From: Gammaproteobacteria bacterium
GTDB lineage: Bacteria > Pseudomonadota > Gammaproteobacteria > UBA1113
NCBI GenBank assembly: GCA_021773295.1
Contig: JAJFKI010000014.1
Coordinates: 4,250-68,249, forward strand
Direction: 5' to 3'
Length of the DNA: 64,000 nucleotides
A model generated the notes under the pieces. It ran no database searches and was not told the origin of the DNA. It saw nothing but the letters and a program-made list of their open reading frames with translations. Both the position numbers and the translations under genes were made by a program. This document shows, piece by piece, positions 32,223 to 44,790 of this stretch; positions within the stretch are counted from its first letter, which is position 1, and each line of letters starts with the position of its first letter.

Positions 32223-33842
32223 ATGACGAATGTAAAAACATTATGGCAGCAATTACAAAACCACCAAGAGCTTATGGCGCAAGTCAGCCTAAAACAATTA
32301 TTTGACTTGGACTCACAACGCTTTCAACACTGTTCATTGCAACATGCGGGAATTTTCTTAGATTATTCTAAAAATCATATTAATAGTGAAACCTTAAAAT
32401 TATTGTGTGGCTTGGCCGAGGCAGCTAATCTTAACCAGAAAATAAATGATTTATTTTCTGGGCAGTCCGTTAATATCAGTGAAAAGCGCCCCGCACTGCA
32501 TACAGCATTACGCTGTCAGCAGAAAAAAGTTTTGATTGTGAACGATCATAACATCATGCCTGACATCAAAGACACGTTGCAACGCATGCAAAACTTATCA
32601 AACCAATTGAATCAGCAGCTATGGTTAGGCGCCACAAATAAACCTATCACCGATATTTTACACATTGGCATTGGTGGCTCAGAACTTGGACCTAAGTTAG
32701 TAAGCGATGCTTTAGCGCCGTTTAAAACTTCAAGCTTGAAATTGCATTTTTTAGCGAGTGTTGATGGCACTGAATTAGCAAATTTGTTACAGCAATTAAC
32801 GCCTGAAACAACGCTAGTGATTGTGGCTAGCAAGTCATTATCCACAAAAGAAACCTTATTAAATACTGAAGCAGTAAAATTATGGTTACTGCAACAATTA
32901 TCACATATTTCTCAGGATATTGTACTGAAGCAACACTTAATATGCGTGACACAAAACATTGAGCAAGCATTGTTGCTGGATGTGGCCGCTGAAAATATTT
33001 TACCCGTTTGGCCCTGGGTCGGTGGGCGCTATTCTATTTGGTCTGCCATGGGCTTACCGATTGCCTTGGTGATTGGTGGTGAGCACTTTGAGCAATTTTT
33101 GGCGGGGGCTCATGCCATGGATGTACATTTTCGCCATAGTCCTTTGGATCAAAACATGCCGGTGTTATTGGGGTTGCTTGGGATTTGGTATAACAACTTT
33201 TTTAATACCCAGAGTCATGTGATTTTGCCTTATGATTATTTGCTGCAATTATTACCGGATTATTTACAACAATTGGTTATGGAAAGTAATGGCAAATGTT
33301 GGCAGCATGATGGTAATGCGGTAGTTGGAAAAACCAGTGCAGTGCTATGGGGAAAGTCTGGTTTAATCGGCCAACATTCTTTTTATCAATTACTGCACCA
33401 AGGGACGCATATGGTGCCAGCTGATTTTATTGTCTGTGCCAAGAGTCGTCATGATTATGAGCATCATCATCAGTTAGTGCTTGCTAATTGTTTTGCACAA
33501 TCACAGGCATTGATGGTAGGTACACAAACCGAACCGCAGAATATTTTCGAACAACAAAAGTATATTCCTGGGAATAGACCTAGTAATACATTAGTATTAG
33601 ATGAATTAACACCCTACACCCTCGGCGCTTTGCTAGCACTCTATGAACATAAAGTCTTTACGCAAAGTGTCATTTGGAATATCAATCCTTTTGACCAATG
33701 GAGCGTTGAACTTGGGAAACAATTATCGAGTGAATTGCTACCGGTGCTACAGGGATCGCAAGCAACGCATTTTGACGCCTCGACTAATGGCTTGGTAGAA
33801 CATGTGAATGCATTGATGAATAAGACTAAAGAGCAATCTTAA
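32223..33842 (+). CDS. pgi: glucose-6-phosphate isomerase
   Basis: Length 539 aa and PGI signature regions (GIGGSELGP, ASKSLSTKET, ESNGK). Confidence 0.93.
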   Translation: MTNVKTLWQQLQNHQELMAQVSLKQLFDLDSQRFQHCSLQHAGIFLDYSKNHINSETLKLLCGLAEAANLNQKINDLFSGQSVNISEKRPALHTALRCQQKKVLIVNDHNIMPDIKDTLQRMQNLSNQLNQQLWLGATNKPITDILHIGIGGSELGPKLVSDALAPFKTSSLKLHFLASVDGTELANLLQQLTPETTLVIVASKSLSTKETLLNTEAVKLWLLQQLSHISQDIVLKQHLICVTQNIEQALLLDVAAENILPVWPWVGGRYSIWSAMGLPIALVIGGEHFEQFLAGAHAMDVHFRHSPLDQNMPVLLGLLGIWYNNFFNTQSHVILPYDYLLQLLPDYLQQLVMESNGKCWQHDGNAVVGKTSAVLWGKSGLIGQHSFYQLLHQGTHMVPADFIVCAKSRHDYEHHHQLVLANCFAQSQALMVGTQTEPQNIFEQQKYIPGNRPSNTLVLDELTPYTLGALLALYEHKVFTQSVIWNINPFDQWSVELGKQLSSELLPVLQGSQATHFDASTNGLVEHVNALMNKTKEQS

Positions 33843-34146
33843 GCATCTATTTTTGGCACCTGGATTACATCTGGCTCCAAGCCCTCTTGGTAGCGCTGCC
33901 ACATTAATTCACAAGCTTTTTCAAAATGTTTGGCGAAACGTTTTGTATTAAACAATGGTTCTGTCTTTTTATTTTGTATCAGTTTTTCTTTTAGTCGCTT
34001 ATATTCTTCTGGATTTTTAATATAGTAAATAATCTTTTCTTTATATTCTTGTGGAGAATTCATCACTAATTCAGGTAAGCCAATATTATATAAGATACTA
34101 GCGGCGCCTCGCGAATGATATCCATCGCCAGGACAAGTAATGACAG
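33839..34146 (-). pseudogene. 3-prime fragment of the third TPR/GT41 glycosyltransferase paralog (split by IS)
   Basis: TCPGDGYHSRGAASILYNIGLPELV...LMWQRYQEGLEPDVIQVPKIDA aligns with the C-termini of the two intact paralogs. The first 23 codons of the track ORF are read-through from the IS end. Confidence 0.85.
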
Positions 34147-42446: not shown

Positions 42447-43849
42447 CTATTAAAGTCATCAGAAAATCTGACGATATCATCTTCTTTTAAGTAACTTCCC
42501 ACCTGTATTTCAATAATTTCTAAAGGCACTTTTCCTGGATTTTCAATGCGGTGTCTCGCACCTATAGGAATATAGAATGACTCATTTTCTGCGACCATTT
42601 TGTTTATTTCTTCACACTCCACCTTCGCTGTACCGTTCACAATGACCCAATGTTCTGAGCGATGGTGGTGCAATTGTAATGACATTCGCTTTCCTGGTTC
42701 AATTAATAATTTTTTTACTAAAAATCTATCACCCATAATTAATGTCTCATACGATCCCCATGGGCGGTGCACTTTTTTATGAGTTAATAGCTCTGTTCTT
42801 TCTTGTTGCTTTAAATGTTCGACAACGTGTTTCACTTGTTGTGCTTTAGAAATATCACCTACTAAAATTGCATCATCAGTTTCCACTACCATCATGTTTT
42901 CAATTCCCATGGCAACCACTAAACGACTCTGGGCCTGAATATAACTATTTTTTACTTCTTTAGTAATCACATCTCCTATAAGAGCGTTATTATTTTCATC
43001 CTTTTGGCTCCTTTGATGTAGTGCATCCCATGAACCAATATCGCTCCAGTGAGTATCTAAGGGAACAACGACAGCATCCAAATTTTTTTCCATAATGGCA
43101 TAATCGATACTATTGCTAGGACAGCGCTCAAACGCCTCTTTTCCAATACGGATAAAATCTAAATCGTGAATACGATCGTGATAAGCATCAACACAGCAAT
43201 TATAGATTTCAGTCGCATATGCCTCAAGCGCCGAAAGGTAAGACTTTGCACTGAAGAGAAAAATACCGCTGTTCCAATAGTAGTTGCCTGATGAAAACAA
43301 CCTTTTGGCAATTTCTTTATCTGGCTTTTCAATGAAGGATTTAACACGAGAGTATGTTTGTGAGCTTGATGCGCTATGCTCAATGTAACCATAACCCGTT
43401 GCAGGGCTGTCCGCAACGATACCAAACATCACTAGTTTTCCTTCTTGAGCTAAGGGCTTCGCCACATTAACAAGAGCTGAAAATGCAGCCTTATCCTCTA
43501 TGGTATGATCAGCTGGTAACACTAATAATAATTCATCTAAATCTCTTTGGGCGACATGCAATGCAGCCATGGAAATTGCGGGTGCCGTATTACGCGAACA
43601 AGGCTCTAGTATTAATGCTTGTGGTTTTATATTGAGGCTCTGCAACTGACTAGCCACTAAGAATCGGTAAGATTGATTACACACGACAATTGGCTGCATG
43701 CTATCTTTGACAATTGCTGCTCTTTTCACTGTATCTTGCATCAATGAATACTCACTAGCTAGTGGCAGTAATACTTTGGGGTAGGTTTCTCTTGATAATG
43801 GCCAAAGGCGGGTACCGGATCCTCCCGCGAGTATGACAGGATTAATCAT
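42443..43849 (-). CDS. manC: bifunctional mannose-1-phosphate guanylyltransferase / mannose-6-phosphate isomerase
   Basis: [17 protein letters not shown] nucleotidyltransferase motif and a C-terminal cupin PMI domain ([15 protein letters not shown]). Start set at ATG 43849, which forms an ATGA overlap with the fcl stop. Confidence 0.9.
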
Positions 43850-44790
43850 GGCACACTTGCCTCTGCTAAACGTTGACAATACCAGCCATAGGTTTCTTGG
43901 ATGCCTTTTTTGAGTGACGTTTTTGGCTGCCAGCCAAGCGCATTTTGTTTACTTAAATCTAATTTTTTTCGCGGTGTGCCATCAGGCATACTCGTATCAA
44001 AGATAATATTTCCAGTATAGCCTACAATGCTTTGTACAAGTTTCACTAAACTTGCAATGCTAATTTCTTCACCACTACCTATATTAATGATACTTTCGTT
44101 CCATTCTTGCTGTAAAAAGTAAAAACAGGCATCTGCCAAGTCATCCGCATGCATAAATTCTCTTAGTGGCTTCCCTGTACCCCATACTGTCACTGTGTCC
44201 AATCCCTCTTGCTTAGCGCAATGAAACCTGTGAATCAAAGCAGGCAAGACATGAGAATTTTTAGAATAGAAATTATCGCCAGGCCCATAAAGATTCACTG
44301 GCATCAGGGTTAGATAGTTTGTGTGGTATTGTTTATTATAAGCTTGGCACATCTTAAGCCCTGCAATTTTAGCAATAGCATATGGCTCATTCGTAGGCTC
44401 AAGCGCACAAGTGAGTAAAGAGTCTTCTTTGATAGGTTGAGGGCACTGCCTGGGGTAAATGCAATTGCTTCCTAGAAACAAGAAACGCTTCACCTTATGT
44501 TGCCTAGCTTGTTCAATAACATTGCTTTGAATCATCAAATTATTGTAAATAAACTCACCAGGAAAGGTATTGTTTGCATAAATACCTCCCACTTTTGCCG
44601 CCGCTAAGATGACATACTCTGGCTGCTCACTCGCAAAGAACATCTCTACTTTATCTTGCCGCATTAAGTTCAACTCTGCTTGTGTGCGGGTAATCAGGGA
44701 GCGAAATCCTGCTTGCTTGAAGCGACGTATCAGTGCAGAGCCGACTAAGCCCCGGTGTCCTGCAATGTAAACCCTGCTGTTGCTATCCAC
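43846..44790 (-). CDS. fcl: GDP-L-fucose synthase (GDP-4-keto-6-deoxymannose 3,5-epimerase/4-reductase)
   Basis: VYIAGHRGLVGSAL Rossmann motif, YAIAK catalytic motif, 314 aa, GTG start. Typical WcaG/Fcl. Confidence 0.9.
   Translation of the reverse strand: MDSNSRVYIAGHRGLVGSALIRRFKQAGFRSLITRTQAELNLMRQDKVEMFFASEQPEYVILAAAKVGGIYANNTFPGEFIYNNLMIQSNVIEQARQHKVKRFLFLGSNCIYPRQCPQPIKEDSLLTCALEPTNEPYAIAKIAGLKMCQAYNKQYHTNYLTLMPVNLYGPGDNFYSKNSHVLPALIHRFHCAKQEGLDTVTVWGTGKPLREFMHADDLADACFYFLQQEWNESIINIGSGEEISIASLVKLVQSIVGYTGNIIFDTSMPDGTPRKKLDLSKQNALGWQPKTSLKKGIQETYGWYCQRLAEASVP

Follow-up and report, generated by a model that had tools for sequence, protein, structure and literature searches.

The DNA analysed here is a stretch of 64,000 nucleotides of contig JAJFKI010000014.1 from a Gammaproteobacteria bacterium (hereafter the window). 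An open reading frame (ORF) listing with translations shows six genes on its minus strand in the order fcl, manC, gmd and three paralogous genes of glycosyltransferase family 41 (GT41), named A, B and C. ORF calls and family scans assign fcl (43846-44790, minus strand) to GDP-L-fucose synthase (GDP-4-keto-6-deoxymannose 3,5-epimerase/4-reductase), manC (42443-43879, minus strand) to the bifunctional mannose-1-phosphate guanylyltransferase/mannose-6-phosphate isomerase (PMI), and gmd (41364-42446, minus strand) to GDP-mannose 4,6-dehydratase. Paralog A (39377-41398, minus strand) combines tetratricopeptide repeats (TPRs) with a GT-B catalytic domain of the type found in O-linked N-acetylglucosamine (GlcNAc) transferase (OGT) and has no intervening domain. 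Paralog B lies at 37326-39371 on the same strand. Paralog C is divided by an insertion sequence (IS) of the IS256 family into an N-terminal five sixths that runs up to the insertion point (35600-37307, minus strand) and a severed C-terminal portion of about 100 codons (33839-34146, minus strand).

The junctions between these genes are overlapping or very short. The likely start of manC is the ATG at 43849, which forms an ATGA overlap with the fcl stop at 43849-43846, and the manC stop and gmd start overlap as GTGA. Both candidate ATG codons of paralog A (41398 and 41374) fall within the 3' end of gmd. The probable one is ATG 41374, which is preceded by AAGGA, lies 8 nt ahead of the gmd stop and is the choice of the gene callers. 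The gap between A and B is 5 nt if B starts at its TTG codon, or 32 nt if it starts at its probable ATG at 39344, and B and C are separated by 18 nt. In a preliminary description of this DNA, the minus-strand order, the ATGA overlap, a 4-nt overlap of manC and gmd, the overlap of gmd with A and the gaps of 5 nt and 18 nt had all been given, and each was read directly from the sequence. The same description counted three intact paralogs of about 670 aa, which does not hold because C is split by the IS. It had also placed a sigma-70-like promoter upstream of fcl and a terminator toward the porin gene. Both were found, as consensus matches only: a terminator-like hairpin downstream of the porin gene (44957-44981, minus strand; 11-bp stem with 8 GC pairs), a second terminator-like hairpin followed by a T-run (44884-44907, minus strand), and a promoter match of the form TTTACC-18-TAAAAT with a TG-extended -10 element (44827-44856, minus strand). 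A scan of the locus revealed no strong terminator within the operon, and this, together with the overlapping and short junctions, suggests that fcl to GT41-C are co-transcribed. The G+C content of the GT41 genes is 0.357-0.363 (0.29-0.32 at third codon positions, GC3) compared with 0.411 for the whole window, in line with the lower values reported for these genes before. It follows a gradient along the operon, with 0.42 in fcl, 0.40 in manC and 0.38 in gmd, and the GC3 of gmd (0.305) is within the low range of the GT41 genes.

Gmd matched TIGR01472 with 557.5 bits (cut-off 415) and ManC/PMI matched TIGR01479 with 672.8 bits (cut-off 373). Fcl scored 463 bits against NF047922 (GDPFucSynFcl), below the cut-off of 500, and with an E value of 5e-139 this was by far its best match. 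The Fcl translation contains S-x-C, YxxxK and NSH motifs, which we take to play the parts of the Ser/Cys, YxxxK and His residues in the GDP-4-keto-6-deoxymannose epimerase/reductase (GMER) of E. coli. According to the family scans, the GDP-fucose branch in the operon is complete except for phosphomannomutase. The nearest homologs of Gmd in a homolog search were only about 70% identical and came from mixed phyla, so that no synteny partner could be reached through Gmd. The operon is bordered by core genes, with pilQ, mrcA, pcnB and pgi on one flank and the Legionella_OMP porin gene, miaA, mutL and amiB on the other. The family of the porin places the organism at the level of Legionellales. Family scans of the neighbours found no O-antigen, GT2 or GT4 genes in or beside the operon, which confirms what had been noted from the sequence at the outset. 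Among the ORFs of the 64-kb window that were scanned, none is a polysaccharide, lipopolysaccharide (LPS) or fucosyltransferase gene. No glycosyltransferase other than the GT41 paralogs is encoded in the locus, and a UDP-sugar gene is likewise absent from the operon.

The GT41 membership and TPR architecture of the paralogs are solid. PF13844 (Glyco_transf_41, cut-off 25 bits) matched A with 280 bits (E 4e-83), B with 300 bits (E 4e-89), the N-terminal part of C with 210 bits (E 6e-62) and the C-terminal part of C with 46 bits. Multiple TPR models matched A, B and the N-terminal part of C. The assignment of the C-terminal halves to GT41 and of the N-termini to TPRs in the preliminary description was therefore correct, and the OGT-like motifs quoted in it are present in the paralogs. 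A, B and the reconstructed C are mutually 40-46% identical. In comparisons with the PDB, full-length A scored 319 bits with human OGT, 188 with Arabidopsis SPINDLY (SPY), 164 with the Xanthomonas campestris enzyme XcOGT and 138 with the Thermobaculum terrenum enzyme TtOGT. The catalytic domain alone gave 244 bits with Drosophila OGT (DmOGT), 228 with human OGT (hOGT), 156 with XcOGT, 132 with Arabidopsis SPY (AtSPY) and 129 with TtOGT in phmmer. An AlphaFold2 model of A built from 65 sequences (pLDDT 93.7, pTM 0.90) has 13 N-terminal helices, forming about 6.5 TPRs, followed by a Rossmann-like two-lobed GT-B fold without the metazoan intervening domain. With this model, Foldseek ranked Drosophila and human OGT first (TMq 0.81-0.83), gave a near-complete match to XcOGT (TMt 0.92, root-mean-square deviation about 2.5 Å) and placed SPY lower (TMq 0.59-0.70). 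Residues of the Asn ladder were found in TPRs 1-3 of A and B, which makes a partial ladder. An HMW1C-type N-glycosyltransferase (NGT) was rejected as an identity for the paralogs, since the NCBIfam NGTferase model gave 35-45 bits against a cut-off of 1000 and TPRs replace the all-alpha domain.

As members of the clade of these enzymes, single-sequence and profile searches of 5.8 billion proteins found only A and B of the window and one Logan contig (L001; SRR31214395, contig 26706). In the profile search A, B and one protein of this contig scored 1,106-1,136 bits and the next match 913 bits. L001 is 5.3 kb long. Like the window, it has three tandem GT41 genes (g1 to g3) followed by pgi in convergent orientation. 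Between the two organisms the pgi tails share 75% identity, but the GT41 genes only 32-42%. Because the contig breaks off within its first GT41 gene, it does not cover the region upstream. In the window, pgi and paralog C converge and overlap by 4 nt at their 3' ends (33839-33842), whereas the corresponding genes of L001 are 22 nt apart. More distant bacterial TPR-GT41 relatives are common (more than 4,500 scored matches). Among the matches listed, the genome and metagenome relatives were 27-41% identical and none was from Legionellales, the nearest genome matches being Desulfococcaceae/Desulfobacterales. The bacterial homologs, at 34-37% identity, are as close as the eukaryotic ones.

Paralog C is interrupted by a 1,453-bp IS256-family element (34147-35599, plus strand), which is present as a single copy in the window. 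The element is bounded by 23-nt inverted repeats (GAGCTATCGTCGAATGTTGTGTA and GAGTTATCGTCAAAAATTGTGTA) and encodes a 443-aa transposase (34232-35563, plus strand) that matched NF033543 with 307 bits (cut-off 150) and PF00872 with 214 bits. It is flanked by a 9-bp target-site duplication, TAATGACAG, at 34138-34146 on the left and 35600-35608 on the right. A Mutator-type transposase, terminal inverted repeats and a target duplication of the 8-9 bp class all agree with the IS256 family, and the clean inverted repeats and duplication led us to reject an assembly artefact. Deletion of the IS and one repeat copy in silico joins 33839-34146 to 35609-37307 and restores an uninterrupted GT41 frame of 668 aa. 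The clean duplication and the frame restored on excision indicate that paralog C was functional until a simple insertion, which was probably recent. As it now stands, paralog C is truncated within the C-terminal catalytic lobe. Its phosphate-binding motif is also weakened, reading NGLAT instead of NGHTT.

Three residues have been shown to separate the use of GDP-fucose from that of UDP-GlcNAc in GT41, namely K689, A731 and Y744 in SPY compared with L866, R904 and C917 in human OGT (PMC10027727). K689 of SPY hydrogen-bonds N7 and O6 of guanine, and a K689A enzyme is inactive. A731 leaves space for K689, and R904 at this position in human OGT contacts O4 of uridine. Y744 binds fucose through hydrogen bonds to O2 and O3, while C917 of human OGT leaves room for the N-acetyl group (PMC10027727). 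Supplementary Table 2 of the same study gives K / non-R / Y as SPY-like and L / R / C as OGT/SEC-like, and it includes an "intermediate" GT41 clan, made up of prokaryotes and stramenopiles, in which the patterns are mixed, such as S-R-Y in Desulfococcus (PMC10027727). A bulky residue at the C917/Y744 position has been argued to exclude GlcNAc, and ApHMW1C, which uses UDP-glucose, has Phe there (F517; PMC9715652).

The paralogs and 120 homologs were aligned with an AtSPY fragment, which was checked against PDB 8dtf_A, and with the DmOGT sequence of the HMMER alignment. At the three positions, paralog A reads A-R-F, paralog B Y-R-V and paralog C L-R-V. The L001 genes read Y-R-V (g1), S-R-Y (g2) and Y-R-A (g3). 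Neither the Tyr of SPY Y744 nor the Cys of hOGT C917 is found in the paralogs, which have Phe, Val and Val at this gate position; L001 g2 has the Tyr. The Leu of hOGT L866 occurs in C only, with Ala in A and Tyr in B. The further nucleotide ligands are OGT-like: Lys/Arg corresponds to K898 (N725 in SPY) and Asp to D925 (E752 in SPY). Equivalents of hOGT R904, H901, K898, D925, K842 and H498 are conserved in the alignments. The catalytic Lys (hOGT K842, SPY K665) is kept in A, B, C and the L001 genes, and the active-site His (hOGT H498, SPY H495) aligns with that of DmOGT and is invariant (H311) among five clade sequences. The hOGT H558 position is occupied by Asp in paralog A, as aligned with DmOGT, and in the consensus of the bacterial relatives.

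The SPINDLY-like label initially attached to these proteins must therefore be dropped. The OGT-type Arg is present, the SPY Lys is absent, Phe/Val/Val stand in place of Y744, and the phmmer scores of the catalytic domain and the Foldseek scores are lower for SPY than for OGT and XcOGT. Judged by every defining feature tested in the alignment and models, the paralogs are not SPY-like and fall with the OGT/"intermediate" group. When set beside the published signatures, their pattern of Arg with a gate residue other than Cys fits the "intermediate" clan. The gate residues Phe, Val and Val also argue against GlcNAc as the donor sugar.

Our leading hypothesis is that the operon encodes a cytoplasmic protein O-glycosylation module in which at least one paralog uses GDP-L-fucose through chemistry different from that of SPY. 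We give this reading a probability of about 0.45. In its favour, the operon is self-contained, its only sugar pathway leads to GDP-L-fucose, its only transferases are GT41 enzymes, and the junction between gmd and A appears to be translationally coupled. A three-paralog array adjoining pgi is kept in a second organism, represented by L001. The gate residues differ from the Cys that accommodates the N-acetyl group of GlcNAc, the catalytic Lys and His are kept, the model of A is confident and OGT-like, gmd has a GC3 as low as that of the GT41 genes, and GT41 already has a branch that uses GDP-fucose. Under this hypothesis, a lineage-specific six-gene operon would have been inserted between core genes of a Legionellales genome. 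The promoter upstream of fcl would drive fcl-manC-gmd, which would lead from fructose-6-phosphate/mannose-1-phosphate to GDP-L-fucose, and then the three old paralogs, of which C is at present knocked out by the IS256-family insertion. In such a system a protein acceptor would be bound by the TPR superhelix and would receive a single sugar on Ser/Thr from the OGT-type GT-B domain while still in the bacterial cytoplasm, ahead of any export. That the acceptor is a protein is suggested by the presence of a TPR superhelix, by the incomplete Asn ladder of TPRs 1-3 and by the analogy with OGT, SPY, cyanobacterial Ogt and FlmG. Surface proteins such as the porin, mentioned as acceptors in the preliminary description, would be a speculative choice. 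GDP-L-fucose made by the products of the upstream genes would be the donor for at least one paralog, and any binding of GDP would have to do without the lysine of SPY and to take place with an OGT-type arginine at the site. Among the paralogs, A is the strongest candidate for GDP-L-fucose use because of its predicted translational coupling to gmd, the small Ala at the hOGT L866 position and the aromatic Phe at the gate.

Several observations weigh against this hypothesis. The R904 position is Arg in A, B, C, all three L001 genes and 120 of the 120 nearest homologs, and a Lys at the SPY K689 position occurs in none of the 120 homologs and in none of the paralogs (Ala in A, Tyr in B, Leu in C). 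XcOGT, the closest structural match, was crystallised with UDP-GlcNAc analogues, and the authors of a study on brown-algal GT41 enzymes with the same type of donor site concluded that UDP-sugars are favoured (PMC11468063). The disruption of one of the three paralogs means that not all of them are required. We also surveyed 160 loci (2.07 Mb) around the best relatives among the matches listed in genome and metagenome collections, using tblastn with Gmd, Fcl and ManC of the window. Neither gmd nor fcl was detected at any of these GT41 loci, and manC was detected at one, 5 kb from its GT41 gene, so adjacency of the fusion type occurs in at most about 1 in 160 among the relatives. By this comparison, the gmd/fcl-GT41 fusion is specific to the window lineage among the loci surveyed, and the linkage proposed for survey in other genomes does not generalise. 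When the ORFs around the 160 loci were clustered, no dominant partner family emerged that could point to the donor or the acceptor. The same absence of gmd/fcl linkage from related loci makes a chance adjacency in the window unlikely. Context favours GDP-fucose and active-site chemistry favours UDP, and the two lines of evidence are opposed.

The main rival explanation is that the paralogs are protein glycosyltransferases of the OGT type whose donor would be a UDP-sugar smaller than GlcNAc, or which would use GlcNAc poorly. In that case fcl-manC-gmd would feed LPS, capsule or another fucosyltransferase elsewhere, and the shared operon would reflect a common horizontally acquired island or a historical accident. 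We regard this as quite possible, although short of probable. The arginine and the missing lysine in all paralogs and homologs, the sequence and fold nearer to OGT and XcOGT than to SPY, the related loci without gmd/fcl and the judgement reached for the brown-algal site type (PMC11468063) all agree with it, as does cyanobacterial Ogt, a TPR-GT41 enzyme that takes UDP-GlcNAc as its donor and is required for the glycosylation of pilin. However, paralog A starts within the end of gmd in an operon without a UDP-sugar gene or any other glycosyltransferase, the scanned ORFs of the window include no fucosyltransferase or polysaccharide gene, and the missing gate Cys argues against GlcNAc.

Two further explanations appear improbable. 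The paralogs might be secreted eukaryote-like effectors, for example type IV substrates, that glycosylate proteins of an amoeba or macrophage and whose divergent TPRs aim at different host proteins. This would suit a Legionellales context with a Legionella_OMP porin, a Fic-domain protein and an ORF resembling a type IV coupling protein (T4CP), the metazoan OGTs as best PDB matches, the extreme rarity of the clade in databases, and the fast divergence within the clade (32-46% identity compared with 75% for the adjoining pgi tail). But acquisition from a host is not indicated, as bacterial homologs are as close as eukaryotic ones (34-37% identity); a bacterial supply of GDP-fucose would be pointless for an enzyme in the host cytosol, and the window yielded no confirmed Dot/Icm gene. 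We give equally little credence to the idea that the acceptor of the GT41 enzymes is not a protein but, for example, a glycan or lipid intermediate, or that their genes are functionless, decaying remnants. The IS disruption and the weakened NGLAT motif of paralog C would fit decay, and the native activity of bacterial GT41 enzymes with an x-R-Y pattern (XcOGT and TtOGT) has never been established (PMC9715652). On the other hand, A and B are intact, with the catalytic Lys and His, a confident OGT-like model and a TPR superhelix of the peptide-binding type, and C was itself intact until a simple insertion with a clean 9-bp duplication.

XcOGT (X. campestris XCC0866; PDB 2JLB, 2VSN and 2XGO) and TtOGT (T. 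terrenum; 5DJS) have a compact TPR region joined directly to GT-B, like the window proteins, and share with them a gate other than Cys (Y463 in XcOGT and Y419 in TtOGT; PMC9715652). The window proteins differ from both in their low identity (about 23%), their approximately 6.5 TPRs, their three tandem paralogs and their GDP-fucose operon, a context unseen in the relatives surveyed. The O-GlcNAc transferase activity shown by XcOGT and TtOGT has been slight or absent, and neither the native donor nor the acceptor of these enzymes is established (PMC9715652). Metazoan and plant OGTs (human, Drosophila and Arabidopsis SEC) are the best sequence and fold matches and have the partial Asn ladder in common with the window proteins. 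The window proteins have no intervening domain and far fewer TPRs, with Phe or Val for C917 and the L866 residue only in paralog C. The operon context of the window points to a GDP-sugar, whereas OGT uses UDP-GlcNAc.

SPINDLY of Arabidopsis and Toxoplasma shares the TPR-GT41 architecture and has a bulky gate residue, Y744, where paralog A has Phe, and through SPY the family already holds a branch that uses GDP-fucose (PMC10027727). The window proteins depart from SPY at K689 (Ala/Tyr/Leu), A731 (Arg), Y744 (Phe/Val/Val), Glu752 (Asp) and N725 (Lys/Arg), with only 132 bits and TMq 0.59-0.70 in the comparisons above. Members of the "intermediate" clan (Desulfococcus oleovorans S-R-Y, Azorhizobium Y-R-Y, stramenopile L-R-Y) have the Arg and a non-Cys gate in common with the window proteins, whose gate is Phe or Val rather than Tyr. 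The Synechococcus elongatus Ogt, which is itself a TPR-GT41 protein, and the Caulobacter FlmG are cytoplasmic and lack a signal peptide; in both, the TPR region selects the acceptor and a GT-B domain transfers the sugar. Ogt O-glycosylates pilin with UDP-GlcNAc, FlmG glycosylates flagellin with pseudaminic acid, and both genes adjoin those of their acceptors. Unlike these systems, the window operon has no adjacent pilin or flagellin gene, and pilQ is about 10 kb away. HMW1C/NGT of Actinobacillus and Haemophilus and HmwC of Yersinia pestis also have a GT41 catalytic domain and glycosylate proteins in the cytoplasm, and the Phe at the gate of ApHMW1C (F517) recurs in paralog A. They differ in having an all-alpha N-terminal domain instead of TPRs and in N-glycosylation of Asn.

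A bolder proposal, which we consider unlikely, is that orphan bacterial GT41 enzymes with an x-R-x pattern, XcOGT and TtOGT included, can use GDP-L-fucose, and that this operon is the first bacterial GT41 system for cytoplasmic protein O-fucosylation. Guanine would then be read independently of the SPINDLY lysine, for example by the conserved Arg reading O6/N7 alongside a small residue in place of L866. The paralogs would fucosylate different bacterial, or later exported, proteins. Neither a bacterial GT41 O-fucosyltransferase nor an operon joining gmd/fcl to GT41 genes came up in full-text literature searches. What is new is the fusion into one operon, the array of three paralogs and a non-SPY signature set beside GDP-fucose genes; the family and the architecture are known. 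The central functional claim rests on context in one genome and conflicts with the published donor signature. The locus can be regarded as a rare natural experiment in which enzyme genes are coupled to a single nucleotide-sugar pathway, which suggests GDP-L-fucose as the donor. If this is true, O-fucosylation of the nucleocytoplasmic type reaches bacteria, and the K/A/Y versus L/R/C signature does not fully predict the donor. If it is not true, the donor signature would be validated and tight operon coupling would be seen to mislead. In either case, the three paralogs, diverged and unlike in their pocket residues, offer a ready series for the study of specificity.

Some of the related loci showed recurrent neighbours. 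Seven loci of Methylophilaceae type (L010, L024, L026, L028, L037, L117 and L118) have miaA within 10 kb of the TPR-GT41 gene, and five of these have mutL within the same distance. These core genes flank the cluster in the window too, which may be a coincidence or may mark a recurrent insertion neighbourhood. In five alphaproteobacterial loci (L030, L043, L047, L058 and L064), flagellin genes, accompanied by FlbT in some, are found about 5 kb or less from the GT41 homolog, which suggests that these GT41 members are flagellin-directed. In locus L002, a 1,762-aa protein that has many TPRs and two GT41 units is encoded directly ahead of a 1,019-aa TPR-GT41 protein (3411-11758), and this pair sits among radical SAM/SPASM and methyltransferase genes.

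Elsewhere in the window, epmA (EF-P lysine ligase) is followed at the window edge by the T4CP-like ORF (62543-63994; the pair spans 61580-63994, minus strand). This ORF has a TraG-D_C match and reached 216 bits with TrbC_conju against a cut-off of 800; it is the sole hint of a type IV system in the window, with Dot/Icm not confirmed. An ORF at 11289-12086 (plus strand) matched the MesI family, a Dot/Icm metaeffector, with 27.5 bits against a cut-off of 300, which probably reflects mere repeat similarity. The Fic/DOC domain (Pfam E 1e-12) is at the C-terminus of a 506-aa protein (3797-5317, minus strand), a possible AMPylator or effector-like protein. A low-GC stretch (17455-25431; 0.345-0.385) adjoins pilQ (22846-23955, minus strand) and contains a 394-aa ORF without family match (17455-18639, plus strand) and three paralogous ATPase genes with AAA_14 and DUF4143 domains (18652-19884 and 20213-21394 on the minus strand, 21629-22837 on the plus strand). 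A gene at 25647-26639 (minus strand) resembles choloylglycine hydrolase/penicillin V amidase, with 239-266 bits, below the equivalog cut-offs.

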